Assembly (NCBI GenBank): GCA_009777275.1
Contig: WRME01000001.1
Span: 1 to 43,576 of the forward strand
Length of the DNA stretch: 43,576 nt
Reading direction: 5' to 3'
Source of the DNA: Oscillospiraceae bacterium
Lineage (GTDB): Bacteria > Bacillota > Clostridia > Oscillospirales > Ruminococcaceae
Under the pieces are notes generated by a model. It was given only the letters and a program-made list of their open reading frames with translations, was not told the DNA's origin and did no database searches. This document shows, in pieces, positions 1 to 43,576 of this stretch. Made by a program: the position numbers and the translations under genes. Positions within the stretch are counted from its first letter, which is position 1; the number at the start of each line of letters is the position of its first letter.

Positions 1-206
1 TTGCGGATTTTTTCCCCCCCCCCCCCGGGGGGTAATTGAAATTTTATAGTATGCAGCCCCCTATCCCCCTCGGGGGGGGGGTGCCGCCGCAGCGGCGGGG
101 TGGTCGGTAGGGATGACCGCCCTCGGTCATCCGTGGTTATCGCAAGGGCGGGTGTTTTTCTCTTGGTGCCCTCGCAGCGGCGGGTGTTTTTCCCGTAACT
201 GTCATT
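1..206. repeat. Mosaic repeat locus 1 (window start), an inverted copy of the composite at 27078-27212 and 43416-43545
   Basis: The reverse complement of 1-104 aligns with accaccccgccgctgcggcggcacccc...catactataa... seen at 27078 and 43416. H4(rc) at 81-104. GTAG-GGATGACC-gccctc-GGTCATCC-GTGGTTAT (H3) at 108-140. H4-type arms ending GGGTGTTTTT at 141-160 and 166-190. C13 (14-26) and G10 (72-81) homopolymers. Confidence 0.8.
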
Positions 207-246
207 ATGCACAAAAATCTCCTCAATTTTTCTGTCATTCTGCATA

Positions 247-273
247 TTGAATTTCTCGAAATTTTGTTATAAT
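247..273 (+). promoter_or_regulatory. Candidate sigma-A promoter of the giant gene (extended -10)
   Basis: TGTTATAAT (TGnTATAAT) at 265-273. TTGAAT at 247-252 with a short 15-nt spacer. ~60 nt upstream of the start codon. Confidence 0.35.
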
Positions 274-335
274 ATATAGTGAGTTAGATTTTTTCTGTTA
301 GGCTCATTTTTTTATTTTATTTGGAGGTGGCTTTA

Positions 336-3300
336 ATGCTGAAAACAAAAAGCAAAAAGTACATGAGGAGGGTGGTCTCTTGGCTTGTAACGCTCGCTAT
401 GATCGCAGGGAATTTTACATACTTTGCGGGTCTTGCTGCGTTTGTTTTACACGGAGACGACCTTGACGGAAGGAGACCCGTTGTGGTGTCGGCCTTCCCC
501 GGAGGAACGAGAACCGATGGTCACGTTTTTTTCGAGTCGGGAAGTGCTTCCCCGAGGGGAGATTTGACAGACAACAAATATGACCCGGATTATCTTTTCT
601 TTGAGTATCAAATTGACCTAAATTGGAGCAGCTCGATCACTGATTCTGACGAAACGGTGCTTGCTACGATAAACAACAGCACCAACGGTGCGGCATACTT
701 CAGAGATACGACCTTTGATGGAGATAGAGACAACAGATACGCTCCGAATTGGGATTATTTCAAGCAAGCTCAAGGTCCTTTGGTCAAAGGAATCAATAGG
801 ATTTCTATACCCATGACCAATTTAATGGACGGCACACTGGGCGGAGAAAAGGATGCTATCGATTGGAGCGACTTAGACAAATTCCTGCTCACCTATTATG
901 TCGGTGACCATTATACAACCGGAGTTACATTCATCTTCTCGGGTATACGGGTTGTGTATTATACCGATGAGGAGGAGGGGGATGGTTCCGATGCTACTAT
1001 GGCTCCGATAGCCGACTGGATCGGCAGCACTCCTCTTGTTAGAACTAACGTAGGTACTTGGGAGTGGGGCGAAAGAACAAGGCTTTTCGGAAACGGCGAT
1101 GCTACAACAATAGATTCTTCCAAGATCTTTTGGAACATAGAGTTTGACCACAAGGTTACAAAAGACGGTCAAGAACTCACACAAGCCGAATATGATGCTA
1201 TTACCGGGCAAAAGCTAAGATTGCATATGGGCTTCAGGGATGGTGATTCTCCGGAAAAGCGGTATACCCTGCATAGCTTTGGTAATGATTTGTACAATGT
1301 CGGAAAAAATACCATCAGCATTCCGCTCGAACAAATTATCAAAACACAGTGGACTAATGTCAATGCCAACATCCCTCATGTGCCGATAATCTTCAACGGC
1401 ACCTCAACAACCGATTATACTCGTGAAACTACTACCGGAGACAATCAAAACCGAGTTTTCAACTGGGGTAATATACGAGAGACCCGCTTTCAGGTGCAGA
1501 ATCTCACCCCCGATGCCGAGACCTTGCTTACATTATATCGGAATGGCGTTTTCTACATAGCGGACGAGGGTAAGGCGGCTCTGAGAGAGCTTGTCAAAAC
1601 AGCCGAGACCATGATAGACCCCGACTACGCCGATGGCGTTGCTTTGTCGGCTTTGGCAACGGCATGGGATCTGCTTGCGGCAGATCTGCCCTATCAGATC
1701 GATGTCGATGCGGCATATGCTACGCTCAGCGATATTATCGACAACTTCAACACAACGGTCATTACCGTTGATGATTTTGTGGGCGGCAAGAATCTTTCCG
1801 CTTCCTTTGATTTTCGCCCCGGAACAACTATATCAAGCCAAGGCGGAAACATACAGTTTTTCAATTGGGTTGTAGACAGATACGCACCAAACGGCGACAG
1901 AACCAATAAAGTTGGAGGAACAGGAAACGCAGGTAATAAGGATCTATATCCCGACCGCTCCAAACTCTTTTACGAGATTGAGTTTGATCTCGGGGTAACC
2001 AACCCGCTCGCAATCGCAAGCGGAGCTTATAACAATTTTACCGGAGATACCCCTCCGGCTAACTATGCGGCAAATGCTGAAGACAGAAAATACTTAACAA
2101 CACAAGAGTTTCAGGCAATTCCAAACTTTAACATAATCAGATGGTATATGGAAGCTAATAGATTAGAACCCGATACGGGCGGACGTGATATTGCTTTCGA
2201 CCTTAACAGGGGCGGAACAATGCCTATTGTTATCGGCAAAAACTCCCTAAGCATGCCGATTCAGAGTGCTATAGACAGAGATGTGTGGACAGGGAATATG
2301 TTCGACCCCCGTCTGCCCATGACAGTCAACGGTCAGACCGATACAAACTCATGGAGTTATTGGAACAACGGAGCACCTGGCAATGATGATAACGGAAATA
2401 GAAGATACAACTGGAACAGCCTAAGTTTGTTCAGGGTTGAAATATTCGCAAACCGTGATGATGCCTACACGGGAGACAGAAATCATTTTATGAGAGGCAG
2501 GATAGTCGATTTCGCAGTAACCAGACTGGGCTTATACTACTATGACGTCAACGGTAAGGACGAACTCCGTAATATGGTAGAAACTGCCGAGAGCGTTATG
2601 CAGGGCGGTGTCTCTACAGCTTACTGGTTGGAGTTTAAATTAGCATTGCATACTGCAAAAACTCTGCTTGGTGCAGTCAATCCCTCACATGACGATGTTG
2701 ATGCGGCAATGGAAGCACTTGAGACGGCCATGAATGATATTGATTCACCCAGTACCGTACAGCTCGAGTGGGGCAGAATCGCCGGAGACGGCACTGGCGG
2801 AACACCTCCGACCAATATAGCGGAAGACAAAATGAGCTTTACCCACAGAGTACCCGGCAGTAACGTAGGCGGCTCATTGTACATGGGTGTTGACAACGGT
2901 AACGGCGAGGGAACTTCTTTCGACGCAACCGGATACAAATATGTATATGTAGACATAATCAAGAAGAACAGAGTACCTACCGAGGGTATATCCGAGGGAT
3001 TCAACGGACTTCATTTACAGCATAACAATGCGGGCATTCCGTTGCCGGAAGCAACGATAAACTCGAGTAATTATGCCGGAACAGACCCGAAAACGGCATT
3101 GTCGTGGCAGGCAGAACTCGGCTCTAAAAAGCCGAATGCCGCATTGGTGAGATTCACCGTGCCTGAGGACAAAGCCACCGACCTAAGGTTCAGGTTTGAT
3201 TTAGAGGGCGGAATGGGCGGTAACAACGCTGAGGCTCACGCCAACGAAGAAAACCAAACCATCAGAATAGGCGGCCTGTGGTTATCCAACGATCCTAACT

Positions 3301-6300
3301 TTGGTGCGGCGGAAGATCATGTTATGGAACTGTACCGTGCCGGAGGAGATAATGCCGGAAACTTCACAGATCTTGGTAACGGCGCATTCTCTATTACAGC
3401 CGGAGGCGGCGGTCATTGGTTCAGAGATAGAAATTCTAATATTCACCAGACAAACGATACCAACTGGTTTGAAATTTCCCGTTATAAATATCTCTACCTT
3501 GATGTTGAGCGTATGGCTCAGTTCCACAGAATGGTGCTAACGGCCGACAACGGCGCTCGTGGCTTTAACATAAGACCGAATGATAATAATCCTAGTAACA
3601 TACAGGGATTCGGACCGGGAACTTCGGGTGTTATTCGGCTTGATCTATCACACTGGAGATTCGAGTTCGGCAGAAACCATGATATGACAATATTCAGACA
3701 ATTAGGATTTGTCGTTGACGGATGGAGCGATGGTCCTCTGACAATCAGCGGTGCAAGGCTCTCGAATCAAGATTACACCTATTCTTCTACCTTCGAGGAA
3801 CCTACTATAACAAACTTTGTAGTAGGCGACAATTTTGCTGTTGACGGCTCAATGACCCTCACAAGTAAAACTATGGCACAGATTACTACAACTCTGCCAT
3901 ACCCGTCATGGGAGTATGTTTCTAATCTAAATCCTAATATAAAAATATTTAGATTAAATTATACCAATTCATTCCCTGCGGGTCATACAGGCATTAATGA
4001 AAACGGAATACGAATGAACTATCATAACGCTGTTATAGGCGGTAATTATGATTGGTCTACCGGAATCCCCGCAAACAATGGCGACTGGGGAAGTTTCAAC
4101 CGCAATTTCCCGTTCAGATTTGCCGATCAAGCGGCGGCGGATGCCTTTGCGTTACAGCTAAACAAAGCATATAATCCGAATTTTGACGATCTCGAAGTTG
4201 CTAATATTGTAAACTATAGTTTTACAGAAATCACAAATGCTAACGATTGGAACTCGGTAGAATGGGATAGAATGTTCAACATCTATAACGCACACGACAT
4301 AACAAGACCAAGGAGTTTTAACCGTACGCTATTTGAACAGGAAACAGGTCTTGTCTTCACTCGCGGCGTAAACGACAATAGCCCTGCGTGGGATGTGTAT
4401 TTCGCTAATTTGTTTGACGGAGTTCGCATAGCTCCTACTACCCAAACCATCCCCATACTCCCGGAGATGGCATCAGGGTACGACATGAACAAGCTGGGCG
4501 AGCAGACGGTTACGATCAGCTACAAGGGGCAGAGTTTCACCTATGACATATTTGTGGGCGGACCGGATCTCTCGCTCGACAAGAGCAGCGGATCATGGGA
4601 TCTCGTGTATGGCTATGACAATGCCGACGGGCTTGATGTAACGGTGTCAAACACAGGCACGCTGAAACTTGACGACATCGAGGTTACCATCGACAAGGAT
4701 GATGCGTTCGAGCTGAATCTCGACAACCTCAAAGACCTTGACCCGGAGGAAGACTTCACATTCACAGTAGCTCCCAAAGACGGACTTGCGGCAGGAACAT
4801 ACACCGCAACCGTGACGGTTACAGTCGGTGATATAGAAAAGACCGTGACCCTAACCATAAACGTAGACAAAGCCAACGGTGCCGCCGTTAAAGAACCGTA
4901 CCTGTTGGAGGCGACCGATACCGCCATCAAGGTAAGGTTAGAATTTGACGGCACCGCAAACGATGAGCAGATCATCGAATCTGCCATCAGCACAAGCGAC
5001 AGTCTCGATGACATAATCGGCGACTGGAACACTACAGGCGAGTTTAGCGGCCTGAGCGAATACACCGAGTATTATGTCTTCGCAAGGTCTAAGGAATCTG
5101 CTAATTACCTTGAGGGAACGGCGGTAATGAGAGACCGCGCGATTAGGACACAAGACGTAACAGCTCCATACGGTGATATACTCGTCAAGGACAGAAGTAT
5201 TTTGGCAACCCTAATCAGCAAGCTGACATTCGGGTACTTCTTCAGGGACGAGACAACCGTCACAATCACGGGCGGCGACGCTCACTCAGGATTGGCCGCA
5301 ATAGAATACTTCCTGTCCGACACCTACTACGACTTAGATAAAGAGGAAGACTATTTAGAGATTCTCGGCGTAGATTGGGTAACAGGCTGGACAGCAAGCA
5401 GCGGATCTCCCAATAACGGAGTTAAGGTTGACAAAACACCGCAGTGGAAAGGCTGGATCTATGCACAGTTCAGAGATTCGGCGGGTAACGATAAAATAAT
5501 CATGTCGGGGGCTTTGGTTATCTTTGAAGACAACGCAGATGAGGTTGACGGCGGAATCTTTATCAAGAACCTGCTCGAAGACTTTGTTGTAGATGTAGAG
5601 TCCAACGGCAACACGATACTCTCAATCTCGTTTGACACGGGTAGCGGTATCGTAGGATTGACCGAAGACGACTATAGCTACAGCGATGACAAGATAACAT
5701 TCAAGAGCGATTTCCTGCGGACATTACCCGCAAGCAACGATCCCTATGCCTTCTTTGTACAGTGGAATCCGATGGGCGAGAAATATGTTGGCTCCGAGAT
5801 TAACGATGATGCTCCGGGCAGAACCGATGTCAAGATTACGGTAAGCAAAGCGGAGCAGGAGGCGCTCGGATTATCGGGACTTAGCGTAAACAAGGTTGCA
5901 TACGGCACCGACCCGATCGCAATCGAGGCGACAGGCGGCGGCGGAGAGACCAACACATTCGAGATAACCACCGATGCAATCATAACGCTGGATAACAACG
6001 ACAACGTAGCAAGCTATGACAGTGCTACAGGTCTTCTCTCTTTCCTGGGGACAGGAACATTCAACATAGTTGTAAACCAAGATGGCGATGATGTCTACAA
6101 CGATGCTAATGAGTTTGTTTATTCGGTAACAGTAGACCAAGGCATACCGTCTATACGGCTTGCCGCAGAAAGATCGCTTACTGACATAAACGACAAAGAT
6201 GTCATACTAACCGCAACCGTTTCCGGAGCAGGATCTACCCCGACCGGAACTGTGAGTTTCTTCAGCAAAGAACACACGGGTACAGGAGATTATGCTCTCA

Positions 6301-9185
6301 TAGGAGATGCTGTAGACCTTGCAGACGGAGTTGCAGAATGTATCGTAACCGCACCGGACGGCCTGTGGGATTATATGGCAGTCTACAGCGGCGACAGCAA
6401 CTATGCTGATAAAAATGCCAACGGAGACCCGATCTCAGATGCAATACACGGATTCGATGTCAGCAGTGCTGACCAGACTATAGCATTTGGCACGGATTCA
6501 ATAGAATTACCATACGGCGTGGCTCCGCTCGGTCTCTTCTACACCGAAGGTGACGAAAACGGAGACGGTGAGGTAACACTCAGTCTGTCTTCCGGATCAC
6601 CGACAGGCGTAATCGAACTCTACCAAGACCAAGACGATGATGAGTGGCTGGCAAAAGTTCTCGGAGTAGGCCAAGTGGTTGTAGTAGCAGAAAAAGCGGC
6701 GACCCCGGGATTCAATGCCGCTACAGACGAAATTACCATCACGATAACACCGAGAGATCTCAATTTTGAGTTTGAAGATGAGTACGAAGTATCGGTAGAG
6801 TTTGACAAGACCTATTCCTACACAGGCGAGCGGATCATGCCCGAAATAGCCGACATCACAGTCACAGATGCGGAGACGAATGCGGTCATCACCGAGAACG
6901 ATTATGACATAACCGCATATGGTGCTAACATCAACGCAGGAAAAGGCAGCATAACCCTCACGGCAAAGGGCAACTACGAAGGCACGAGAGTGGTTGAGTT
7001 CGACATCGCAAAGGCGAAGGCAACTGCTATCGACTTCCCAACCGTTGATCCCATGGTATACAGCCCGACCCGCACGCTTGGCGACATTCCTCTTGTTGGC
7101 GGAAAGATTGTGTTCCTTCTTTCTTTAGACCCTGTAACGAATACCGATGCTAATGCGTATGGAGATTTTGCATGGTCAAATCCCGATGCTGTTCCGAATG
7201 CAGCGATTCATTCCCTGCCTGTATGGTTTGCACCTAACGATTTTGCTGATGGCAACGTGGACTTTAGCGAAATACAATTCTGGAATAATGGTATTAGTAA
7301 AGGTGTTAAACTGACTATAACCCAAGCAGAGGGAGCAAAGATCACCAACATCAACGATCTGCAGGCTAATGTCACCCACAACAAAATCGAGTTGACAAAC
7401 GTCAATGCCCTGTTGTCTGATAACGAAAACGCAGGATTCGAGTTTGCTATCAGCGATAAAGCAGACGAAACCGCTCAGGACTTAGAATCACTGTGGGATA
7501 CCAAGACGGTATTTGACGTAGAAAACGTAGACGAAAAGGCAACAAACTTCTACATCTATGTTCGTTCAGCAGAGAGCGGCAACTACTTTGCGGGAGAACA
7601 CAACGTCAAGATGTTCACAACCCTCGATGATCCCGCAAACAAGATAGAGCTTGATCAGACAGGCGAATGCGATTTCGGCACACGAAAATACGGATACGAT
7701 TATTCGTGGGCAACTGCCGTAAAAATAACCAACCTGGGCAATCAAGAGACAGGCGATCTAACCGTAGCTATAAAAGACACTACAAAAGATGGTGCGAACT
7801 TTGCAGGTAATGCTTTCATAGTCCTAGACGGAAACACAATTCCGAGTATAGATATAGATGGAAACGCAACCTTCGCAGTAAATCACGCAGTGCTTCTTGA
7901 ACCCGGCGTATACACGGCAACGGTAGTTGTGAGCAATGACTTGGTAGACCCGGTCAGCTTCACGGTTAAGTTCACCGTCACACTTGCAGACGGAGCAGCG
8001 GTAAGCGCTCCTGAATTGGTAAGCAAGACGGCAAACAGCATTACTGTAAAATCTGAGGCACTTGTCAATCCCGGCGAACAGGAGATCATCTATAGTATCA
8101 GCAAAAGTGCAAATCCCGGCGAAGTTTTCGACACAAACACCACGGGAGTATTCACCGGATTAGATAACTACACCGACTACTGGTTCTTTGCAATGACAGC
8201 GTCAAAGGGATTCTATGATGAGGGTATGCCATCAGCAAACCCGACAGCCATCAGGACCAATGACGGAGTTGCTCCTACAGGCTGGATAAGCGTGGCAGAA
8301 AGACCTGCGTTTGAGACCTTCATCAACACAATAACATTCGGAATATTCTTCAAGAATACAGCCTCTGTAACTGTAAAGGGTGAAGACGCCGATTCCGGAG
8401 TTAAGACCATCGAATACATCCTGCACGGCGACAGTTTTGACACAGTACAGGATGCTATAGACGGCATTGACAATGCTTGGACGGTAGGATACACAGCAAC
8501 CGCTATCGAAGAAGACGAAGCACAGGCAGTATTCAATATCACAGCGGCGCAAAAAGGCTCGGTATATGCCCGCATAACAGACCAGCAGGGCAACTATATC
8601 GTGATCAACTCAGACGGAATCGTGGTCTATAACGACAGCGAGGACGAGGTTGACGGCGGCATATACACCATCAGGGTTACCGGAACCCAAAGAGACCACA
8701 TAGTACCGATTGAGATGAATGACAATACCGTTGCCGCAATCGTGGATGAAGACGGAAAAGAACTCGTGGCAGGAACCGATTACACCGTGGATTACGCCAA
8801 CGAGACCATAACATTCTCAGGTGCATATCTCGCACCACTCGGTAACGAAGACGAGGAAGTAATAGCTATATTCACCGTCACATGGCTCCCGATGGGCGAA
8901 ACACCGACAACACCGTTAGCGGAACTCGGAACAACGACTGTCGCATTCCTGATCGTAAAGGCTAAGGCGCCCATGAAGGGCAACCCGACCGACGACGGCG
9001 AGATCTCTGTAAGCGATGTACTCTACACGAGAGACTTTATATTCAGAAGATCAGCCATAAACGCCCCTGATATTGATCCCGACACATATGCCATGATATT
9101 TGCCGCAATGGACATGAACGAAGACGGCGTAATCGACATCTTCGACCTGATCCGCATCAGAGATGCAATAGTCCGCGGAAGATAA
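336..9185 (+). CDS. Giant (2,949 aa) secreted/anchored multi-module surface protein with C-terminal dockerin
   Basis: Uninterrupted ORF 321-9185. GGAGGTG SD at 323-329 favours ATG 336. N-terminus MLKTKSKKYMRRVVSWLVTLAMIAG is a basic plus hydrophobic signal/anchor. C-terminus carries two Ca-loop-like segments, DDGEISVSDVLYTRD and DMNEDGVIDIFDLIRIRD (dockerin duplicated F-hand pattern). Ig-like (GTVSF...AVYSGDSNYAD) and MBG-like (NDYDITAYGANINAGKGSITLTAKGNYEGT) segments sit mid-protein. Large internal duplications. No catalytic motif recognised. Confidence 0.85.
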   Translation: MLKTKSKKYMRRVVSWLVTLAMIAGNFTYFAGLAAFVLHGDDLDGRRPVVVSAFPGGTRTDGHVFFESGSASPRGDLTDNKYDPDYLFFEYQIDLNWSSSITDSDETVLATINNSTNGAAYFRDTTFDGDRDNRYAPNWDYFKQAQGPLVKGINRISIPMTNLMDGTLGGEKDAIDWSDLDKFLLTYYVGDHYTTGVTFIFSGIRVVYYTDEEEGDGSDATMAPIADWIGSTPLVRTNVGTWEWGERTRLFGNGDATTIDSSKIFWNIEFDHKVTKDGQELTQAEYDAITGQKLRLHMGFRDGDSPEKRYTLHSFGNDLYNVGKNTISIPLEQIIKTQWTNVNANIPHVPIIFNGTSTTDYTRETTTGDNQNRVFNWGNIRETRFQVQNLTPDAETLLTLYRNGVFYIADEGKAALRELVKTAETMIDPDYADGVALSALATAWDLLAADLPYQIDVDAAYATLSDIIDNFNTTVITVDDFVGGKNLSASFDFRPGTTISSQGGNIQFFNWVVDRYAPNGDRTNKVGGTGNAGNKDLYPDRSKLFYEIEFDLGVTNPLAIASGAYNNFTGDTPPANYAANAEDRKYLTTQEFQAIPNFNIIRWYMEANRLEPDTGGRDIAFDLNRGGTMPIVIGKNSLSMPIQSAIDRDVWTGNMFDPRLPMTVNGQTDTNSWSYWNNGAPGNDDNGNRRYNWNSLSLFRVEIFANRDDAYTGDRNHFMRGRIVDFAVTRLGLYYYDVNGKDELRNMVETAESVMQGGVSTAYWLEFKLALHTAKTLLGAVNPSHDDVDAAMEALETAMNDIDSPSTVQLEWGRIAGDGTGGTPPTNIAEDKMSFTHRVPGSNVGGSLYMGVDNGNGEGTSFDATGYKYVYVDIIKKNRVPTEGISEGFNGLHLQHNNAGIPLPEATINSSNYAGTDPKTALSWQAELGSKKPNAALVRFTVPEDKATDLRFRFDLEGGMGGNNAEAHANEENQTIRIGGLWLSNDPNFGAAEDHVMELYRAGGDNAGNFTDLGNGAFSITAGGGGHWFRDRNSNIHQTNDTNWFEISRYKYLYLDVERMAQFHRMVLTADNGARGFNIRPNDNNPSNIQGFGPGTSGVIRLDLSHWRFEFGRNHDMTIFRQLGFVVDGWSDGPLTISGARLSNQDYTYSSTFEEPTITNFVVGDNFAVDGSMTLTSKTMAQITTTLPYPSWEYVSNLNPNIKIFRLNYTNSFPAGHTGINENGIRMNYHNAVIGGNYDWSTGIPANNGDWGSFNRNFPFRFADQAAADAFALQLNKAYNPNFDDLEVANIVNYSFTEITNANDWNSVEWDRMFNIYNAHDITRPRSFNRTLFEQETGLVFTRGVNDNSPAWDVYFANLFDGVRIAPTTQTIPILPEMASGYDMNKLGEQTVTISYKGQSFTYDIFVGGPDLSLDKSSGSWDLVYGYDNADGLDVTVSNTGTLKLDDIEVTIDKDDAFELNLDNLKDLDPEEDFTFTVAPKDGLAAGTYTATVTVTVGDIEKTVTLTINVDKANGAAVKEPYLLEATDTAIKVRLEFDGTANDEQIIESAISTSDSLDDIIGDWNTTGEFSGLSEYTEYYVFARSKESANYLEGTAVMRDRAIRTQDVTAPYGDILVKDRSILATLISKLTFGYFFRDETTVTITGGDAHSGLAAIEYFLSDTYYDLDKEEDYLEILGVDWVTGWTASSGSPNNGVKVDKTPQWKGWIYAQFRDSAGNDKIIMSGALVIFEDNADEVDGGIFIKNLLEDFVVDVESNGNTILSISFDTGSGIVGLTEDDYSYSDDKITFKSDFLRTLPASNDPYAFFVQWNPMGEKYVGSEINDDAPGRTDVKITVSKAEQEALGLSGLSVNKVAYGTDPIAIEATGGGGETNTFEITTDAIITLDNNDNVASYDSATGLLSFLGTGTFNIVVNQDGDDVYNDANEFVYSVTVDQGIPSIRLAAERSLTDINDKDVILTATVSGAGSTPTGTVSFFSKEHTGTGDYALIGDAVDLADGVAECIVTAPDGLWDYMAVYSGDSNYADKNANGDPISDAIHGFDVSSADQTIAFGTDSIELPYGVAPLGLFYTEGDENGDGEVTLSLSSGSPTGVIELYQDQDDDEWLAKVLGVGQVVVVAEKAATPGFNAATDEITITITPRDLNFEFEDEYEVSVEFDKTYSYTGERIMPEIADITVTDAETNAVITENDYDITAYGANINAGKGSITLTAKGNYEGTRVVEFDIAKAKATAIDFPTVDPMVYSPTRTLGDIPLVGGKIVFLLSLDPVTNTDANAYGDFAWSNPDAVPNAAIHSLPVWFAPNDFADGNVDFSEIQFWNNGISKGVKLTITQAEGAKITNINDLQANVTHNKIELTNVNALLSDNENAGFEFAISDKADETAQDLESLWDTKTVFDVENVDEKATNFYIYVRSAESGNYFAGEHNVKMFTTLDDPANKIELDQTGECDFGTRKYGYDYSWATAVKITNLGNQETGDLTVAIKDTTKDGANFAGNAFIVLDGNTIPSIDIDGNATFAVNHAVLLEPGVYTATVVVSNDLVDPVSFTVKFTVTLADGAAVSAPELVSKTANSITVKSEALVNPGEQEIIYSISKSANPGEVFDTNTTGVFTGLDNYTDYWFFAMTASKGFYDEGMPSANPTAIRTNDGVAPTGWISVAERPAFETFINTITFGIFFKNTASVTVKGEDADSGVKTIEYILHGDSFDTVQDAIDGIDNAWTVGYTATAIEEDEAQAVFNITAAQKGSVYARITDQQGNYIVINSDGIVVYNDSEDEVDGGIYTIRVTGTQRDHIVPIEMNDNTVAAIVDEDGKELVAGTDYTVDYANETITFSGAYLAPLGNEDEEVIAIFTVTWLPMGETPTTPLAELGTTTVAFLIVKAKAPMKGNPTDDGEISVSDVLYTRDFIFRRSAINAPDIDPDTYAMIFAAMDMNEDGVIDIFDLIRIRDAIVRGR

Positions 9186-9217
9186 TGGCGTAGGCAGGAA
9201 AACAAAACAAAGAGAAA

Positions 9218-9247
9218 AGAGCGGTCATAACGACCGCTCTTTTTTTT
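9218..9247 (+). terminator. Rho-independent terminator of the giant gene
   Basis: AGAGCGGTC (9218-9226), loop ataac, GACCGCTCT (9232-9240), then T7 (9241-9247). Confidence 0.8.
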
Positions 9248-9259
9248 GGCGTGCTACTT

Positions 9260-9483
9260 CCACGGTCACCGCATTTACTTTTTTGATAGTAATCCGCAAT
9301 AACAACGGATGACCGAGGGCGGTCATCCCTACAACCCTGTATTACGCCCTGAAACGCCCTCTCAGTCGGCGTTGCTGCCCTGTAGGGTATGCACCCCGTG
9401 CATACAGTCCTTAATAAACATTTCGTGTTTTTTGTGTATTTCGTGGTTGAAAAAGAATAAAAAAGTAAATGCGGTGACCGTGG
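9260..9483. mobile_element. MITE-like 224-bp composite bounded by perfect 25-bp terminal inverted repeats
   Basis: CCACGGTCACCGCATTTACTTTTTT (9260-9284) is the exact reverse complement of 9459-9483. Interior order: attgcgg(rc), H3(rc, 9308-9329), H9 (9351-9375), H1 (9381-9408), CACGAAA-type repeat (9420-9448). No coding capacity. Confidence 0.6.
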
Positions 9484-9485
9484 TC

Positions 9486-9696: not shown

Positions 9697-9742
9697 AAAA
9701 ACACCCGCCGCTAAGAAAAAACACCCGCCGCTGCAGTAGGGG
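9697..9742. repeat. Two tandem H4 half-modules (AAAAACACCCGCCGCT x2) overlapping the activase 3' end
   Basis: Copies at 9697-9712 and 9716-9732, then gcagtagggg. They encode the last ~10 codons and follow the stop of the 9711-10676 CDS. Confidence 0.7.
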
Positions 9743-11772: not shown

Positions 11773-11881
11773 TTCTGCACTATACATTTTACATTGATTC
11801 TCATTCTGTTTCTTAATTCTGCATTCTGCACTATTACATACATTGATTCTCATTCTGCATTCTTAATTCTGCATTCTGCAT
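11773..11881. repeat. Tandem (~50 bp x2 plus a partial) GCAGAAT-type module between the two DUF2229-like genes
   Basis: Units 11781-11831 and 11832-11881 (tat[at]aca..cattgattctcattctg..tcttaattctgcattctgca). Related to the reverse complement of 26880-26909. Confidence 0.75.
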
Positions 11882-12772
11882 TGTTATGATTTCCATAAAA
11901 CTCTCAAGCCTTGTTTGGAGTCCGGTGCCGCTGTTCAGTTCATCGAGGACTATGTTGATGATAGGAATGTCTCTGATTTTTCTTATGAGAAGTTCGTTCA
12001 CCAGCGAATCGGGACCGCAGGGAAAGGCGGAAAGCAGGATTATTCCATCCACCCTATCTTTAAAAATCCCGACCGCTCCCACCAATTCCTTGTTATACAA
12101 CCAGTAGAGTGAATCGGATATTCTGCCTGAGCTTTTGGCACAGAGCTTTTTGTCGGCGGCATCGGCGCAGACGGGAATCCCGCCCATGCTTTTTATAGCG
12201 GATATGACAGGCTGTCCCAACATTCTGTCGTGTGTGTTGTAGTTATGCGCCACTATCAGTATCTTGGGTTTGCCGCTCTGCTCCATCTCTTGCTGCTGCC
12301 GATGTGACGACATTCGCGCTTGTTCGGCAGAGAATCGTTTAGCCTTTATAAACGCAGACAGCGATTGCGGGGTTTTTTTGCCGATCATTCTTCCCATGCT
12401 CAGGAACCCTTTCAGCTCGCCTGCACCTCGAATAGCATCGATGTTATAATCGATAAGTTCCGCCTGCTCAAAGGTGTTTCTGACAATATCATAAAGAGCG
12501 TTGAATTTCACACAGACCTGATTATCCCTGCCATAGTTGTCGATACGGGGGACGAGTATATAGTCGCATTTGCCGATAAGCGAGTAGACATGACCCATAT
12601 AGATTTTTGCGGGCAGACAGCACTCGTCTATAGAATACTTGATGCCATCGTCCATGATTTTCTTGTTGGTCTCTCCGCTTATAGTTATATCACAGCCAAG
12701 CTCGCAGAAAAACCTTTCCCACAATTCGCCGTAACGATAATACAGCAACGCCCGCGGCAATCCTATTGTCAT
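11834..12772 (-). CDS. DUF2229-like activase-associated protein, subunit A
   Basis: N-terminus MTIGLPRALLYYRYGELWERFFCELG...DECCLPAKIYMGHV. The last 15 codons (MQNAELRMQNENQCM) and the stop lie inside the GCAGAAT-type repeat module. Confidence 0.7.
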   Translation of the reverse strand: MTIGLPRALLYYRYGELWERFFCELGCDITISGETNKKIMDDGIKYSIDECCLPAKIYMGHVYSLIGKCDYILVPRIDNYGRDNQVCVKFNALYDIVRNTFEQAELIDYNIDAIRGAGELKGFLSMGRMIGKKTPQSLSAFIKAKRFSAEQARMSSHRQQQEMEQSGKPKILIVAHNYNTHDRMLGQPVISAIKSMGGIPVCADAADKKLCAKSSGRISDSLYWLYNKELVGAVGIFKDRVDGIILLSAFPCGPDSLVNELLIRKIRDIPIINIVLDELNSGTGLQTRLESFMEIITMQNAELRMQNENQCM

Positions 12773-12866
12773 TATTCCAGCCCGCTTTTCACAGTTATTT
12801 CAACTGTTATTATGAACGCATATTGTATGAAATATGCAAACATTAAAACAATACCTCTTAGTCTCC

Positions 12867-13200
12867 GAAACGCCCTCTCAGTCGGCGTTGCCGCCGACAG
12901 CTCTCCCAAAGGGAGAGCCAAGGTGACACACCCACAGGGTTTGCGATAACCCCGAAAAAACACCCGCCGCTGCGGCGGCACCCTCTTTACGAAAGAGGGC
13001 AGGGGCTTGAAATTTCAATCCTGTAGGGTATGCACCCCTGTGCATACCGTCCTTAATAAACATTTCGTGGTTTTTATGTATTTCGTGGTTACAATAATTG
13101 TCAATTGTACATTGTCAACTGTCAATTGTAGTGGTAGGGGCGGCAATCTGCCGCCCGTGGTTATTGCGGATTGCTATAAAAAAAACAAATGCGGTCCGTG
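12867..13200. repeat. Mosaic repeat locus (334 bp) upstream of the activase operon and hicAB
   Basis: Order: H9 12867-12891; H8 12901-12917; H4 12955-12983; H5 12981-12999; cttgaaatttcaatcc 13006-13021; H1 13022-13050; CACGAAA repeat 13051-13090; heptamer array 13096-13130; H2 13133-13165; attgcggatt plus a TIR-like aaaaaacaaatgcggtccgtg ending at 13200. Confidence 0.85.
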
Positions 13201-13204: not shown

Positions 13205-13233
13205 TTGACATTTAGTACCGTATATGGTACTAT
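13205..13233 (+). promoter_or_regulatory. hicAB promoter with embedded palindromic operator
   Basis: TTGACA 13205-13210, 17-nt spacer, TGgTACTAT with -10 at 13228-13233. Palindrome AGTACC-gtatat-GGTACT at 13214-13231 overlaps the spacer and -10. Confidence 0.45.
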
Positions 13234-13252
13234 AATAATAGGAGGTGAAAAA

Positions 13253-13477
13253 ATGGCAGGATTTGAAAAGACAATGGATAAGATGAAACGTCAACCTCAT
13301 GGCATAAGCTATGAAGAAGCGGCAAAGGTTTTAGAGCATTTTGGATATAAGTTTTTGCGGCAAAAAGGTTCACATTGTCATTTCAGGCATTTGTGCGGTG
13401 ATTTAATTACGATTAAAAAAGAAACACCGACCATAAAAAAATGCTATGTTGTTGATATTCTATCAAAAATAGAATAG
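13253..13477 (+). CDS. hicA: HicA-family mRNA interferase toxin
   Basis: AGGAGG at 13240-13245, then 7 nt, then ATG 13253. ~74 aa with FLRQKGSHCHF (HicA G-S-H core). Followed 17 nt later by a HicB-like gene. Confidence 0.75.
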   Translation: MAGFEKTMDKMKRQPHGISYEEAAKVLEHFGYKFLRQKGSHCHFRHLCGDLITIKKETPTIKKCYVVDILSKIE

Positions 13478-13493
13478 CATTCCTGCTTATATT

Positions 13494-13847
13494 ATGGATA
13501 AAAAGAACATTGATTATTATATGAATTTGCCTTATAATATAACTATGCAAGAAATACATGATGAGAGCGGAGATTATTTTTATGCACGAGTTTTAGAGCT
13601 TGATGGATGTCAAAGCCACGGCAATACCATTGACGAGACTTATGAGAATATCCGTGAAGCGATGGAGGGATGGATTGAGATTAAACTCGAATATGGTGAT
13701 GAAATCCCTGTGCCTATATCTAATAATGCCTTTAGCGGTAGATTCAATCTGCGTATACCGAAAAGTCTGCACAGCAGGTTGGTTATAGAGGCTCAAACTG
13801 AAGGAGTGTCACTCAATCAATACGCACTCTATAAACTTGCAAATTAA
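13494..13847 (+). CDS. hicB: HicB-family antitoxin with C-terminal ribbon-helix-helix
   Basis: N-terminal HicB fold pattern (YFYARVLELDGCQSHGNTIDETYENIREAM). C-terminal FSGRFNLRIPKSLHSRLVIEAQTEGVSLNQYALYKL is an RHH-type DNA-binding tail. Confidence 0.8.
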   Translation: MDKKNIDYYMNLPYNITMQEIHDESGDYFYARVLELDGCQSHGNTIDETYENIREAMEGWIEIKLEYGDEIPVPISNNAFSGRFNLRIPKSLHSRLVIEAQTEGVSLNQYALYKLAN

Positions 13848-13850
13848 CTA

Positions 13851-13882
13851 AAAAACACCCATCTCACCGATGGGTGTTTTTT
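13851..13882. terminator. Bidirectional terminator between hicB (+) and spoVT (-)
   Basis: A5, ACACCCATC, loop tcacc, GATGGGTGT, T6. The 9-bp stem is flanked by an A-run and a T-run. Confidence 0.75.
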
Positions 13883-13925
13883 ACACTCGTATTAATGTTA
13901 TGTGAAATTTCACTAACCTATATTC

Positions 13926-17145: not shown

Positions 17146-17179
17146 GTAATATTTTTACGTTTTTGTGAATAAAATAATT

Positions 17180-17209
17180 TGTAGGGTACGCAACCCTGTG
17201 CGTACCGTG
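17180..17209. repeat. Solo H1 module (GTAG-GGTACGCA...TGCGTACC-GTG) between the GNAT gene and yabP
   Basis: tgtagggtacgcaaccctgtgcgtaccgtg. Same module as at 9381, 13022, 26962(rc), 31875(rc) and 37475. Confidence 0.8.
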
Positions 17210-25551: not shown

Positions 25552-25554
25552 AGG

Positions 25555-27276: not shown

Positions 27277-27286
27277 TACTTTAATT

Positions 27287-31760: not shown

Positions 31761-32157
31761 TGTAACTATTTTGTAACTATTTGGTTTTGGGATGACCGCC
31801 GCCCTCTCCGTCACGCCACGGCGTGACACCTCTCCCAAAGGGAGAGGCAAGAAGACACACAGGGTTTATGACGGGCGGTACGCACGGGGGTGCGTACCCT
31901 ACAACGTGATAACCACGGGCGGCAGATTGCCGCCCCTACCACTACAATTGACAATTTACAATGTACAATTGACAATTATTGTAAATGTAAATTTGCTGGC
32001 GAAAATAGGGTTAGATTTCTATAATTTCAAGCCCCCGTAACTGTCCATTGTTCATTGTAAATTGTCAATTGGCATCATTCCCCTCTGGGGAGGGGTGGCA
32101 AACACTCGCAACAAAGTTGCGATAGTGTTTGACGGGGTGGTCTGCCTCGAAATACTC
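31761..32157. repeat. Mosaic repeat locus (about 400 bp) between the epimerase gene and DUF1015
   Basis: Order: tgtaactattt x2 at 31761-31782; H3-like left arm plus GTCACGC-cacg-GCGTGAC 31789-31827; H8 31830-31846; H1(rc) 31875-31902; H2(rc) 31909-31940; heptamer array(rc) 31943-31977; spacer; heptamer array 32039-32071; H6 32080-32095; H7 32102-32145. Confidence 0.85.
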
Positions 32158-35112: not shown

Positions 35113-35132
35113 CACTGTACGAGAATAACAAT

Positions 35133-35168
35133 ACGGGCGGGAGTAAATTTCCCGCCCGTATGTTCGTT
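35133..35168 (+). terminator. Hairpin terminator after the 48-aa ORF
   Basis: ACGGGCGGGA (35133-35142), loop gtaaatt, TCCCGCCCGT (35150-35159), then a T-rich atgttcgtt. Confidence 0.55.
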
Positions 35169-36535: not shown

Positions 36536-37273
36536 ATGCTCTATGCGGCAATAATGGCGGGCGGCAGGGGGGAACGGCTGGGCGGAGATCTGCCTAAACA
36601 GTTTCTGCCCGTTTGCAGCAGGCCCGTTATAATCCGAACCCTCGATGTATTTATGGGTCTCGGAGTTTTCGATTGTATCTATATCGGCATGGCTCCCGAT
36701 TGGATCGAACACTGCACCCGTCTCCTGAAAGAACACGGTTACTGTGATGGCAGCATAAAACTTGTTGCAGGCGGACAGAGCCGTCATCTCACGATGGTTA
36801 ATATCCTGCGTGAAATCAACAACACAAAGAACGATATTATCGTTACCCACGATGCCGCCCGTCCCTTTGTCAGCGGCAGGATGATACTCGACAGCATCAG
36901 TGCCGCCAAACAACATGGCGCCTGCGGAGCGTATATAGAATCTACCGACAGTCTTGCCCTGTCGCAAGACGGGGACTCTATCGGGCAATGTCTCCAACGC
37001 AATGGGATTTATTTAGCGCAAACCCCTCAGAGCTTTCGTCTCGATCTGTTGTTAGAGTGCATAGACAAACTCAGCCCGTCTCAAGCGGAACAGCTCACAG
37101 ACGCCTGTTCGGTCTTTAGATTATGCGGCCTGCCTGTAAAGATAATCCCCGGAGAATCAAGCAATCTCAAGATAACCACAAAAAGCGACATGGAATATGC
37201 AGAGTATGTGGCAACGACACGGAAAAACACCCGCCCTTGCGAGGGCACCCCGACGGCAATTGACAATGGATAG
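36536..37273 (+). CDS. IspD/TarI-family cytidylyltransferase (by memory closer to TarI, ribitol-5-P cytidylyltransferase)
   Basis: GGGGAGGA SD then ATG 36536. AIMAGGRGERLGGDLPKQFL, VTHDAARPF, AQTPQSF, SNLKITT. The last ~17 codons (RKNTRPCEGTPTAIDNG) are encoded by H4 and heptamer repeat modules. Confidence 0.75.
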   Translation: MLYAAIMAGGRGERLGGDLPKQFLPVCSRPVIIRTLDVFMGLGVFDCIYIGMAPDWIEHCTRLLKEHGYCDGSIKLVAGGQSRHLTMVNILREINNTKNDIIVTHDAARPFVSGRMILDSISAAKQHGACGAYIESTDSLALSQDGDSIGQCLQRNGIYLAQTPQSFRLDLLLECIDKLSPSQAEQLTDACSVFRLCGLPVKIIPGESSNLKITTKSDMEYAEYVATTRKNTRPCEGTPTAIDNG

Positions 37274-37505
37274 TTGACAATTGACAATTATTGTAACTAT
37301 AAATTCGCTGACAAAAATAGAGTTAGATTCCTATAATTTCAAGCCCCCGTAACTGTCCATTGTTCATTGTAAATTGTCAATTGTCATCGGGGTGCCGCCG
37401 CAGCGGCGGGTGTTTTTCCCGTAGGGGCGGCAATCTGCCGCCCGTGGTTCTCACGGATTGCGGGTGTTTTTTCCTGTAGGGTACGCACACCTGTGCGTAC
37501 CGTGG
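37222..37505. repeat. Mosaic repeat locus overlapping the tarI/ispD 3' end and preceding ymdB
   Basis: Order: H4 variant (GCCCT-tgcg-AGGGC) 37222-37251; heptamer array(rc) 37256-37293; spacer; heptamer array 37351-37385; H4(rc, terminator-like GGGTGTTTTT) 37389-37420; H2 37421-37449; cacggattgcgggtgtttttt 37452-37472; H1 37475-37505. Confidence 0.85.
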
Positions 37506-38334: not shown

Positions 38335-38471
38335 CAGTTACGGGGGGTAACCACGAAATACACTAAAACCACGAAAAGGGAAAAACACCCGCCGCTGCGG
38401 CGGCACCCTCTTTACGAAAGAGGGCAGGGGCTAATAATCTCAAGTCCCTGTAACTGTACATTGTCAATCGG
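38329..38471. repeat. Mosaic repeat locus between ymdB and the HD gene; contains both stop codons
   Basis: Order: aattgacagttacgggggg 38329-38347; CACGAAA array(rc) 38349-38379; H4 38381-38408; H5 38406-38424; variant spacer plus heptamers 38425-38471. Confidence 0.8.
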
Positions 38472-39243: not shown

Positions 39244-39346
39244 CCGCAATTCCTGCGGGATTAGGCTTTAAGAAATAGGACTTGAAATTTCAATCCCATG
39301 CCCTCTTTCGTAAAGAGGGTGCCCTCGCAAGGGCGGGTGTTTTTTT
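39244..39346. repeat. Mosaic repeat locus upstream of the HD gene, with H5+H4 inverted relative to 38381-38430
   Basis: Order: ccgcaattcctgcgg 39244-39258; cttgaaatttcaatcc 39281-39296; H5(rc) 39301-39319; H4 variant(rc) 39318-39346. Confidence 0.8.
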
Positions 39347-39421
39347 GGCCAATCAACCCTTGACCCCGCAAAGATTTTATGATATATTATAGTTACAAAT
39401 TCGGAAAGGACGGTATGCCGG

Positions 39422-41337: not shown

Positions 41338-42189
41338 ATGCCAAAACAATTTTTATCCCCACGCAATGATTTAATCTTCAAACTTCTATTCGGAGACGAA
41401 CGCAGTAAAGAAATTCTAACCGATTTTCTAAAGTCCGTACTGCTGATTCCCCACGAAGATTACGACACGATAACCATCCTTGACCCGCACCTTTTACCTG
41501 ACTACAGGGACGGTAAACTGGGCATAATTGACGTGAAGTTGCAGACAAAATCGGGCAAGATAATCAATATCGAGATTCAGGTCGAACACATACCGCAGAT
41601 GAGAGAACGGGTGATTTTCTACGATGCTAAGATGGTCACAGAGCAGATCGGTGCGAGCGAGAACTACGAGAAAATCAAGAAAGTCATCAGCATCATAATA
41701 ACCAACCACGAGTTTATAGAAAAAAGTCCGAAATACCATCACAGATTCACTCTTTACGATGCCGACAATCAGGTCGAATTTACCGACACAATCGAGATTA
41801 ACACGCTGGAATTGCCCAAGATCCCCGGCGATTCAGACGGCACACCATTGTGGGACTGGATGAAGTTTCTCGATGCGAAAAATGAGGAGGATTTGGACAT
41901 GGCAGCAGTAGCGAACACGCAGGTCAACAACGCCGTAATACGGCTAAAAGAGCTGTCCGCAGACGAGCGGACGAGGATGTTATACGAATCCCGTATAAAG
42001 ATGGAACGGGACATTTATTCGATAACAAAGGGGAAAGAGGATGCAGCCGAGAAGCGGGGTATGGAGCGGGGAATGGAGAGAGGCAAAATCACCATTGCCC
42101 GCAACGCACTTAGGATGAACATTCCTGTTGCCGACATAGCCAAGCTAACCAACCTTACCCCCGAAGAGATCGAATCCTTACTCCCATAA
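41338..42189 (+). CDS. Rpn-family recombination-promoting nuclease / putative transposase (PD-(D/E)xK, TIGR01784-like)
   Basis: LSPRNDLIFKLLFGDE N-terminus. GIIDVKLQ...INIEIQV nuclease core. AAAGGAG SD. Confidence 0.8.
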   Translation: MPKQFLSPRNDLIFKLLFGDERSKEILTDFLKSVLLIPHEDYDTITILDPHLLPDYRDGKLGIIDVKLQTKSGKIINIEIQVEHIPQMRERVIFYDAKMVTEQIGASENYEKIKKVISIIITNHEFIEKSPKYHHRFTLYDADNQVEFTDTIEINTLELPKIPGDSDGTPLWDWMKFLDAKNEEDLDMAAVANTQVNNAVIRLKELSADERTRMLYESRIKMERDIYSITKGKEDAAEKRGMERGMERGKITIARNALRMNIPVADIAKLTNLTPEEIESLLP

Positions 42190-42200: not shown

Positions 42201-42231
42201 ACCGGACGGCATTGCCGTCCGGTGTCTTTTT
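42201..42231 (+). terminator. Rho-independent terminator of the rpn-family gene
   Basis: ACCGGACGGC, loop att, GCCGTCCGGT (10-bp stem), then gtcTTTTT. Confidence 0.8.
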
Positions 42232-42354
42232 ATAGCTACATACTTCATTCAATTAGCCACACTTCATTCAATAGCAAACTCTGCTCCTACAACCTGTCTT
42301 CCGCTGCCCTGCAGCACACGGTATTTTCCCAATCAATCTCTCCCAACAATCTTC

Positions 42355-42383
42355 TTGATATTTTGAGCGATTTATGGTATAGT
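42355..42383 (+). promoter_or_regulatory. Candidate sigma-A promoter of dgt
   Basis: TTGATA 42355-42360, 17-nt spacer, TGgTATAGT with -10 at 42378-42383. Confidence 0.4.
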
Positions 42384-42426
42384 TAGTTTAATAACGTTTA
42401 ACAACAATCGAGCGGAGGGTTTGTTT

Positions 42427-43416
42427 ATGACAATAAGAGAGAAAACCGAGATGATAGAGGTTTCAACTCTGAGTAAATACGCTGCATTGTCGATTAAAAC
42501 AAAGGGACGCACAAGGCTTGAGAGCGAATGTCCCATGCGTGCCGCTTTTCAGCGGGATCGGGACAGGATTATACACTCCAACGCATTTCGCAGGCTCAAG
42601 CATAAAACCCAGGTCTTTATATCACCCGAGAAGGATCACTACCGCACACGTCTGACCCATACGCTTGAGGTTGCTCAGATCGCACGGACTATCGCTCGTG
42701 GATTGCGGCTCAACGAAGACCTTGCCGAAGCCATTGCGTTGGGACACGATTTAGGACACACCCCTTTCGGTCACGCGGGCGAAAGGGCGCTGGACAAAAT
42801 ATGCAGGCATGGATTCAGGCACAATCTGCAGAGTGTGCGTGTTGTAGAGTTTCTCGAAAAAGAGGGTAAAGGGCTGAATCTCACCTATGAGGTCAAAAAC
42901 GGCATCGAGAACCATGTGGACGGAAATGCCGCCACCCTTGAGGGGCAGTTGGTGGAGGTCTCGGACAAGATCGCATTTGTCAACCATGATATAGAGGACG
43001 CCATACGAGGCGGAATAATCACAAGCAAAGACATTCCGTATAATTGCGACTACTTTCTCGGCAAGACCAAAAGCCAACGTATACACACCGCCGTAAACTC
43101 GATAATACAGGGCAGCGGTGAGAAGATACAGATGCACCCCGAAATCAAAAAGGCGCATGACCAGCTGCTTGATTTTATGTATAAGAAGGTCTATATAGAT
43201 TCCGCCGCCAAGACAGAGGAAAACAAGGTAGAGGGATTGATGAGAAGTGTGTATGAATATTATCTCGCCAAGCCGCAAGGTCTGCCGCCATTTTATGCGG
43301 AGATAGCCGAAAAAGAGGACATCGACAGAGCGGTCTGCGACTACATCGCCGGAATGAGCGACATATATCTTGTCAAACTGCACAATCGGCTATTCGTACC
43401 GCAGGCGTGGGAATAA
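42427..43416 (+). CDS. dgt: dGTPase-like dNTP triphosphohydrolase (HD superfamily)
   Basis: FQRDRDRIIHSNAFRRLKHKTQVF, HYRTRLTHTLEVAQIAR, GHDLGHTPFGHAGE. GGAGGG SD 7 nt before ATG 42427. Confidence 0.85.
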   Translation: MTIREKTEMIEVSTLSKYAALSIKTKGRTRLESECPMRAAFQRDRDRIIHSNAFRRLKHKTQVFISPEKDHYRTRLTHTLEVAQIARTIARGLRLNEDLAEAIALGHDLGHTPFGHAGERALDKICRHGFRHNLQSVRVVEFLEKEGKGLNLTYEVKNGIENHVDGNAATLEGQLVEVSDKIAFVNHDIEDAIRGGIITSKDIPYNCDYFLGKTKSQRIHTAVNSIIQGSGEKIQMHPEIKKAHDQLLDFMYKKVYIDSAAKTEENKVEGLMRSVYEYYLAKPQGLPPFYAEIAEKEDIDRAVCDYIAGMSDIYLVKLHNRLFVPQAWE

Positions 43417-43576
43417 CCACCCCGCCGCTGCGGCGGCACCCCTCCCCCGAGGGGGATGGGGGGTTGCATACTATAATTTCCAATTCCCCTCTGGGGGGGG
43501 GGGGGGAACACTCGCAACAAAATTGCGGTAGTGTTTGACGGGGGGGGCTGGCTCGAAACACCCCCTCAGTCCGCGG
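43414..43576. repeat. Mosaic repeat locus at the window end, same composite as 27078-27212
   Basis: H4 at 43416-43442, starting at the last base of the dgt stop codon; CCCCTC-cccc-GAGGGG; catactataatttccaattcccctct; G14 (43493-43506); H7 43508-43545; H9-like gaaacaccccctcagtccgcgg to the end. Confidence 0.8.

Follow-up and report, generated by a model that had tools for sequence, protein, structure and literature searches.

A 43,576-nucleotide contig of an Oscillospiraceae bacterium (WRME01000001.1, assembly GCA_009777275.1; the whole stretch is called the window here) carries dense mosaics of short hairpin-forming repeats at 13 loci. We found that these mosaics are best explained, with a probability of roughly two in three, as piled families of small non-autonomous hairpin repeats in intergenic DNA, one of which, the repetitive extragenic palindrome (REP) family, is linked in relatives to RAYT, an enzyme of the HUH/Y1 type. 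REP/RAYT biology has so far been almost wholly that of Proteobacteria and Cyanobacteria. Its presence here, dense and in several families, in uncultured Clostridia of the gut and the termite gut adds a new bacterial group to those that carry this known type of selfish DNA.

A preliminary description of the window, made from the sequence alone, had reported hairpin modules (H1 to H9) and tandem repeats at 13 loci. All 13 carry them, at or within a few bases of where they had been placed. In the window, we counted six copies of H1 (9382, 13023, 17181 and 37476, with 26965 and 31878 on the minus strand), four of H2 (13134, 27243 and 37421, with 31913 on the minus strand) and two of H3 (107, and 9305 on the minus strand). 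H5 and H7 are present in three copies each, with a further H7 fragment at 25249; H8 and H9 have two copies each, and H4 and H6 have many. Tandem Repeats Finder confirmed the 7-nt arrays and the CACGAAA repeat, the latter with a period of 9 nt. Some points of the description needed revision. The hairpin of H9, drawn as AACGCC-N9-GGCGTT, is in fact GTCGGCG-ttgc-CGCCGAC, and the approximately 15 modules thought to be shuffled freely are mostly pieces of a few larger palindromic composites with a fixed internal order. These larger elements are E1, E2, the two-hairpin units U, U′ and U″, and H1 with an AT-rich tail.

Perfect hairpins (stem of at least 8 bp, loop of 3–6 nt) number 25 in the window, compared with 2.5 ± 1.6 (maximum 8) in 60 dinucleotide shuffles. 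Those tagged with GTAG number 11 by script count and 12 by reading the hairpin list, and the shuffles gave none. The repeat and hairpin pattern is far above chance. Together, the mosaics cover 2,425 nt, or 5.6% of the window, as the earlier estimate of 5–6% had it, and they make up about 48% of the 4.7 kb that is intergenic. Seven loci occupy gaps between co-directional genes, two lie in convergent gaps, two in divergent gaps and two at the contig ends, so the loci are not mostly in convergent gaps as first described.

GTAG-tagged hairpins in the window and in other Clostridia

H1, H2 and H3 share one frame, GTAG-GG(stem)-loop-(stem)CC-GT(GG), built on three stem types. Their stems are 8–9 bp long and all begin with GG, their loops measure 3–6 nt, and they fold as single-stranded DNA at −9.5 to −11 kcal/mol (z of −3.1 to −5.2). 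An unpaired 5′ GTAG stands directly at the foot of each hairpin, and the stems are GC-based, within 6–13 bp, with a short loop. H1 to H3 therefore fit the structural definition of a REP, a 5′ GTAG plus a GC-footed palindrome, as had been proposed. H1 occurs in two compensated forms, TATGCAC/GTGCATA and TACGCAC/GTGCGTA, which differ by a T–A to C–G swap; of its six copies, four have an AT-rich tail that contains TTTCGTG repeats, and one more has this tail in diverged form.

GTAG was the commonest tetranucleotide at hairpin feet in four sets: the window, loci seeded on H2, RAYT loci and loci seeded on H7b. It thus tops the foot tags even in contigs chosen by H7b, which is an unrelated module. 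Across the window and the fetched loci (675 kb), GTAG stands at the foot of 313 of 953 perfect hairpins, with 39 different stems, all of which start with GG. The window contains 12 GTAG REPs, all intergenic, and another 40 lie in 138 kb of related metagenome contigs. REPs in the window are mostly single or in mixed H1/H2 pairs (31878/31913 and 37421/37476); inverted doublets are clear in other metagenome-assembled genomes (MAGs), at loci L020, L036, L038, L064 and L072.

A scan that covered one genome per species found the H2 core, GTAGGGGCGGCA-NNN-TGCCGCCCGTGG, at no fewer than 72 loci, spread over more than 25 Clostridia MAGs. These MAGs come from the guts of termites, cattle, sheep, deer, rabbits and humans and are labelled Oscillospiraceae, Faecousia, Monoglobus, Acutalibacteraceae, Defluviitaleaceae and Peptococcaceae. 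None of the coding DNA at the H2-seeded loci resembles the window, and their neighbourhoods are rich in further GTAGGG hairpins with other stems, some of them inverted doublets. Strict searches for H1, H3, H4, H7, H8, H9 and X1 found none of these in the 72 loci, indicating that they are lineage-specific modules. A metagenome scan with an H7b 21-mer returned at least 27 contigs, and all matches listed came from the termite-gut metagenome Ga0099364. When the window was compared with these 27 contigs by BLAST, exactly the 13 mosaic loci matched, at 82–94% identity in alignments of up to 205 nt, and no other part of the window did; E1, aligned separately, reached 98% over 133 nt. This metagenome carries the whole module repertoire at 82–98% identity. 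Viral contigs gave no match to the U pattern and one to the H1 pattern, and hence no phage link.

GTAG hairpins in unrelated Clostridia MAGs are flanked by other short tandem repeats, namely GTAATAG, CTAGTMC, CCAACGA and GATG (L003, L005, L021, L022, L023, L046, L063, L065, L071 and the Th196 loci), which recall the heptamers of cyanobacterial short tandemly repeated repetitive (STRR) sequences.

In-frame REPs in RAYT-type genes of relatives

The suspected tie between such modules and Y1/HUH genes was found for H2-type modules in three relatives. In L027, a 168-aa gene matches Pfam Y1_Tnp with a score of 28.4 (cut-off 23), and its best NCBIfam match is REP_Tyr_transpos at 60.4, below the model cut-off of 80. 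One H2 copy lies over the stop codon of this gene, and an inverted copy within the open reading frame (ORF) encodes HGRQIAAPT. In the DNA of L075 and L078, a forward and an inverted REP are both in frame in a Y1_Tnp gene, and L075 has a third copy with a T-run just past the stop codon.

RAYT-type homologues number at least 476, some of which are named 'REP element-mobilizing transposase RayT' by JGI. The HuH motif (PDHIH) and the class-2 tyrosine motif Y---NP (YIxNNP) are invariant in the family alignment (A1). The peptide G-R-x-x-x-A-P-T, which is the reverse-strand reading of the GTAGGG hairpin, occurs in 113 of 120 homologues, and an N-terminal loop with VGAATCRP or VGADIIRP, the forward reading, occurs in 87 of the 120; the two motifs co-vary in stem type. 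The sole PDB match of the clostridial family profile was 4ER8, E. coli TnpA-REP (E = 6e-8), relative to which the REP-encoded residues form a 7-residue insertion. With these features, the clostridial Y1 family, of about 160 aa, is of the RAYT type. In-frame REP insertions between HuH and Y are the hallmark of RAYT subclass 2.4, which equals Bertels group 4 (Quentin et al. 2018, PMC6006769), and, judged by that feature, the clostridial family would belong there. Two homologues contain tandem in-frame copies of the REP peptide (VGAATCRPN twice and VGADTIRP three times; P0093 and P0117), so REP copy number varies within the RAYT gene itself. In the literature searched, we found no paper on the RAYT peptide motifs or on Ruminococcaceae REPs.

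The preliminary description held that no mobilising enzyme is encoded in the window. This is correct for Y1/HUH genes, but it missed a PDDEXK_2 'transposase' gene at 41338–42189. Searches by tblastn with RAYT and PDDEXK_2 proteins against the window, L073 (a contig of the same strain) and L082–L108 returned matches to REP-encoded peptides only.

It is conceivable, if improbable, that the RAYT gene holds in-frame forward and inverted master REPs and that the same enzyme drives a nested 'hairpin ecosystem'. Were this joint reading true, selection on the protein motifs (VGAATCRP and GRQIAAPT) would hold the REP constant across Clostridia families and re-seed the genome, hpA cassettes of 13–34 nt (the variable hairpins described below) and REPs would insert site-specifically at the feet of other hairpins, and modular terminator or insulator arrays would fill half of the intergenic space.

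Two-hairpin elements and competing explanations

The modules without GTAG assemble into the two-hairpin units (family 2) and larger palindromes. U has the form ACCACCCC-hpA-CACCCCTC..GAGGGG-AATGGGGCTT, U′ is AACACCC-hpA-CACCCTCTTT-acg-AAAGAGGG-CAGGGGCTT (H4 plus H5), and U″ is CGCCCTCTC-hpA-ACCTCTCCC-aaa-GGGAGAGG-CAAG (H9 plus H8). The three units are paralogous; hpA lies between direct repeats of 5–7 nt, and the second hairpin is conserved. The hpA hairpin varies by compensated changes, with GCCGC/GCGGC, GCCGT/GACGGC and GCGCC/GGCGC in U, and GTCGGCG, GTCATGC and GTCACGCC as variants in U″.

E1 (27077–27209, 133 nt) consists of two inverted U units, one with H7 as its hpA. It has the ends GACCACCCCG...CGGGGTGGTC and folds at −55.8 kcal/mol (z = −11.9), and 17 near-full copies have the same ends and differing flanks. 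E2 (37221–37420) is a 200-nt palindrome with a folding energy of −51.4 kcal/mol (z = −9.3); H4 forms its terminal inverted repeats and AATTGTC heptamers form its arms, and it is not made of paired U units. E1 and E2 have terminal inverted repeats, but the flanks of the 17 E1 copies show no target-site duplication, unlike those of classical DDE-derived miniature inverted-repeat transposable elements (MITEs). H1, H2 or H3 abuts the same edge of U″ within 0–3 nt in 9 of 26 U″ units, which suggests insertion at hairpin feet. We conclude that the REP and bacterial interspersed mosaic element (BIME) reading is right for H1 to H3 and, being partly supported, reasonable as an analogy for the remaining modules. 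AATTGTC heptamer arrays (13097–13125, 31948–31976 and 37260–37288) contain promoter-like TTGACA-17-GACAAT matches on both strands.

The loci, with strand where one applies, are composed as follows.

1–206: mosaic at the contig start, with a reversed E1 left half (59–105) and an H3 REP (107–134)
78–105, 140–160 and 165–195, plus strand: three terminator-like H4 copies within 1–206
9260–9483: mosaic in a convergent gap, with an H3 REP on the minus strand (9305–9332), a truncated U″ start (9353–9379) and an H1 REP plus AT-rich tail with TTTCGTG repeats (9382–9448), bordered by an inverted repeat (9260–9283 and 9466–9483)
9697–9742, minus strand: two partial H4 or E2-end copies (AAAAACACCCGCCGC) that overlap the stop codon of a BcrAD-type gene
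11773–11886, minus strand: array of 12 GCAGAAT heptamers, made up of 2.1 repeats of a 50-nt unit, lying between two genes in the same operon
12862–13200: mosaic in a divergent gap, with U″ (12869–12925), U′ (12956–13018), an H1 REP plus tail (13023–13092), AATTGTC heptamers (13096–13129), an H2 REP (13134–13165) and an X3 tail, in this order
17177–17209, plus strand: solo H1 REP between a GNAT gene and yabP
25246–25274, plus strand: fragment of the E1 right end (H7b), after radC
26874–27283: largest mosaic, with GCAGAAT heptamers, CACGAAA repeats, a minus-strand H1 REP with tail, X1 plus heptamers, an H4 copy, a complete E1 (27077–27209), a spacer and an H2 REP (27243–27273)
31780–32157: mosaic with a truncated H3, U″ (31800–31855), H1 and H2 on the minus strand, a partial E2 (31941–32076) and then an E1 right half (32077–32145)
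37221–37505: mosaic with a complete E2 (37221–37420), in which the ispD reading frame ends, then an H2 REP (37421–37447), an H4-like hairpin and an H1 REP (37476–37503)
38340–38470: CACGAAA repeats, a U′ unit (38381–38443) and an X1-like tail in a convergent gap
39270–39348, minus strand: reversed U′ unit with a compensated hpA variant (GCCCT..AGGGC) in a divergent gap
43414–43576, plus strand: E1 copy (43416–43548), 91% identical to 27077–27209, that starts at the stop codon of an HD gene; the contig ends inside this copy, with G-run errors

Some gene ends run into these elements. The final 17 or so codons of ispD fall within the terminal repeat of E2 (37221–37273), E1 shares its first base with the stop codon of the HD gene (43414–43416), and the stop codon of the BcrAD gene overlaps H4a copies (9697–9734).

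In the explanation that we favour, several repeat families would have accumulated in intergenic DNA, where they became nested and truncated. On the model of E. coli TnpA-REP, the hairpin and its GTAG foot would be recognised on single-stranded DNA by a RAYT whose gene lies elsewhere in the genome; the enzyme would then cut and rejoin the REP without target duplication. Two-hairpin units, which often pair head-to-head into long palindromes (E1), may behave, together with E2, like REPINs (paired REPs) or MITE-type elements. New copies would land at the feet of existing hairpins and so form clusters, as in the case of the three REP types at one U″ edge, and recombination between copies would reshuffle the arrays.

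Several results weigh against this explanation. Neither the window nor L073 nor any of the 27 termite-metagenome contigs yielded a RAYT gene, and no RAYT with an H1-type in-frame motif was found among the best 120 matches to a chimeric consensus query. Nothing was found that links the non-GTAG elements to RAYT, and family 2 lacks GTAG. The flanks of the 17 E1 copies bear no target duplication or other transposition footprint. The best YmdB homologue in a search of 5.8 billion proteins is just 63% identical, too distant for a comparison of empty and filled sites. With neither a RAYT gene in the window nor a close relative, mobility, and any role of RAYT for the non-GTAG elements, are inferred.

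Some of the repeats may also serve the host. The terminator consensus fits both H4 with GTGTTTTT after it and H2 with a T-rich tail. Over the right half of the window, terminator-like sites number 45, compared with 16.9 expected, a 2.7-fold excess over shuffles. Some of the H4 copies with GTGTTTTT after them probably have a secondary role as terminators or insulators. Against such a role, H4 copies occur in both orientations and are also found upstream of genes and in divergent gaps, so a simple terminator role fails to explain their placement. Taking regulation as primary, one could argue that the modules are host-selected structures that spread by duplication and gene conversion rather than by transposition, and that they work as bidirectional terminators or insulators, as stabilisers of mRNA 3′ ends or as protein-binding arrays (for example, the heptamers). 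Besides the terminator matches and their excess, the many elements that adjoin stop codons, the compensatory stem changes, which reflect selection on pairing, and the TTGACA boxes within the heptamer arrays would all fit. We nevertheless consider this unlikely. Genes have strong terminators of their own outside the mosaics (9215–9243, 13849–13883 and 42201–42223), H4 copies are also found in the wrong orientation and in divergent promoter gaps, and stacked truncated copies of up to 400 nt exceed any regulatory need. Moreover, the same elements stand beside unrelated genes in other contigs, and the GTAG type is linked to a family of transposases. Given the two orientations, the divergent gaps and the genes' own terminators, we read the arrays as selfish or neutral, with some perhaps co-opted.

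Another explanation would make all families, including U, E1 and E2, remnants or miniatures of another element (palindrome-associated transposable elements or MITEs), derived from IS200/IS605-type elements or from a PDDEXK_2/Rpn nuclease system, with the GTAG REPs as bystanders. The terminal inverted repeats and long MITE-like palindromic folds of E1 and E2 are as this predicts, and the window does contain a PDDEXK_2 gene, inside which the same-strain contig breaks, suggesting several copies. However, no TnpA, TnpB or PDDEXK_2 gene lies by any of the 27 module-rich contigs' repeats, no target-site duplications were seen, and what follows the PDDEXK_2 gene is an ordinary terminator (42201–42223), not a module. 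We consider this origin unlikely as well.

That the mosaics are an artefact of assembly or sequencing, or that the contig is chimeric, is very improbable overall and, where the internal loci are concerned, already refuted. In an independent assembly (ENA ERZ27257348), two contigs match the window at 99.98–99.99% without gaps. They span the loci from 9260–9483 through 39244–39346, leaving the end loci 1–206 and 43414–43576 uncovered, and their agreement shows that the internal repeats are not an assembly artefact. All eleven internal loci recur base for base in this second assembly, and the same modules are found in the JGI termite-gut metagenome; across many projects and hosts, they recur with divergence and compensatory changes. 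What speaks for an artefact is that both contig ends lie in repeats with C/G homopolymer runs and that one junction differs between assemblies, and doubt remains at the outermost 60–90 nt or so. The runs are carried by the first 60 or so and the last 90 or so bases of the window. They replace normal E1 sequence (for example, GACCACCCCG becomes GCCCCCCCCG) just near contig ends, at window positions 14–32, 66–81, 43486–43510 and 43540–43548 and at the ends of contigs L093, L094, L105 and L108, and are likely to be read or assembly errors at hairpin repeats. The differing junction is at window position 32022 (9441/9442 in L073), in the X1/heptamer module of the mosaic 31780–32157. Past this point, L073 joins the DUF1015 gene to another mosaic and HEPN/NTase genes, not to the Wzm/Wzt cluster, a difference compatible with recombination between mosaics or with assembly ambiguity. 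Apart from this junction, the same-strain contigs are identical to the window in the mosaics.

Host, neighbouring genes and comparison with known systems

The window includes spoVT, yabP, yabQ, fliD, fliS and cheV, together with a BcrAD/HGD activase set, a Wzm/Wzt polysaccharide cluster, ispD and ymdB. It is a chromosomal segment of a spore-forming, flagellated member of the Clostridia. The nearest YmdB homologues, named Ruminococcus, Massilimaliae and Oscillospiraceae, agree with the Clostridia-type host first proposed, and their distance means that the host has no sequenced close relative; it is an uncultured, Oscillospirales-like member of the Clostridia.

A 2,954-aa ORF (321–9185, plus strand) has CBM_X2 and Big_3_5 domains and its own strong terminator (9215–9243); its product is probably a cell-surface or cellulosome-type protein. 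Two toxin-type loci directly adjoin repeat loci: HicA/HicB at 13205–13847, and a HicA-like gene with a 72-aa partner on the plus strand at 25285–25773, which we preferred to a gene model at 25273–25764 on the minus strand. Long perfect palindromes with T-runs on both sides (35131–35161, 42201–42223 and 13849–13883) are single-copy, stand outside the repeat system and are bidirectional terminators. The PDDEXK_2 gene (41338–42189, plus strand) encodes an Rpn-type 'PD-(D/E)XK nuclease family transposase'; L073 stops within it, at window position 41462, suggesting several genomic copies. An Rfam scan of the window (E ≤ 1) gave MicX at 9204–9287 as its sole match, at 34 bits compared with a gathering score of 75, which we read as chance. 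A CRISPR array, integron attC sites, tRNA and riboswitches were ruled out on irregular spacing, the absence of a family match and the occurrence of both orientations.

Mosaic repeats have practical consequences. They break metagenome assemblies, and many contigs end in them; they may be points of rearrangement; and they seed spurious ORF calls. A 61-aa ORF in the public gene call for the same-strain contig (12878–13063, minus strand) lies entirely within a mosaic, and mosaic repeats thus give rise to spurious 'hypothetical proteins'. Three stems share a single frame, and one is embedded in the gene of the enzyme, so the REPs are a natural test set for how RAYT reads the GTAG foot against the stem. 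The finding also draws attention to two-hairpin elements that lack GTAG.

The closest known system is that of REPs, BIMEs and REPINs with RAYTs of subclass 2.4. Both have a 5′ GTAG foot with a GC-footed palindrome, several stem types per genome, and intergenic singles and clusters; inverted doublets are clear, for the present system, in the other MAGs. The cognate gene, seen here in relatives, likewise encodes a protein of about 160 aa with HuH and Y---NP motifs and has REPs at its end and in frame between HuH and Y (PMC6006769). For Clostridia, Bertels 2017 lists group 1 only, with weak repeat association, and the text of Di Nocera 2013 contains no Firmicutes or Clostridia term. The present case differs in its clostridial host, in that REPs are a minority of the mosaic, in that no RAYT of this genome was seen in the sequence examined, and in that a single REP type is conserved base for base in several Clostridia families.

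Neisserial intergenic mosaic elements (NIMEs; dRS3/RS and Correia elements) are tied to phage integrase and dRS3 sites, and the terminal inverted repeats of Correia elements carry a TA duplication. They resemble the mosaics described here as long intergenic arrays of interleaved short repeat families that act as recombination substrates; a remark in PMC3733652 bears on this comparison. Their sequences and hosts are unrelated, and here the units are hairpins, with no duplication seen.

Small dispersed repeats (SDR) of Cyanobacteria were reportedly described by Elhai in 2008. SDR and STRR heptamers are likewise tiny nested hairpin repeats accompanied by tandem heptamers, and their phylum has many RAYTs of subclass 2.4. 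A passage of PMC3116915 cites SDR. SDR and STRR heptamers share no sequence similarity with the present modules, for which nesting is suggested by the direct repeats around hpA.

Among Firmicutes, pneumococcal BOX elements keep their modules in the fixed order A-B-C, and RUP is a MITE of the IS630 type with a TA duplication. BOX, RUP, SPRITE and the Bacillus cereus bcr repeats are also modular, hairpin-forming and intergenic, but they are not known to have a GTAG foot or a RAYT link. The type of system described here is thus already known from REP/RAYT, BIME, NIME and SDR-type mosaics, whereas its host group, its density and its two-hairpin families are new; for the RAYT arrangement, it is the host group that seems to be the novelty.

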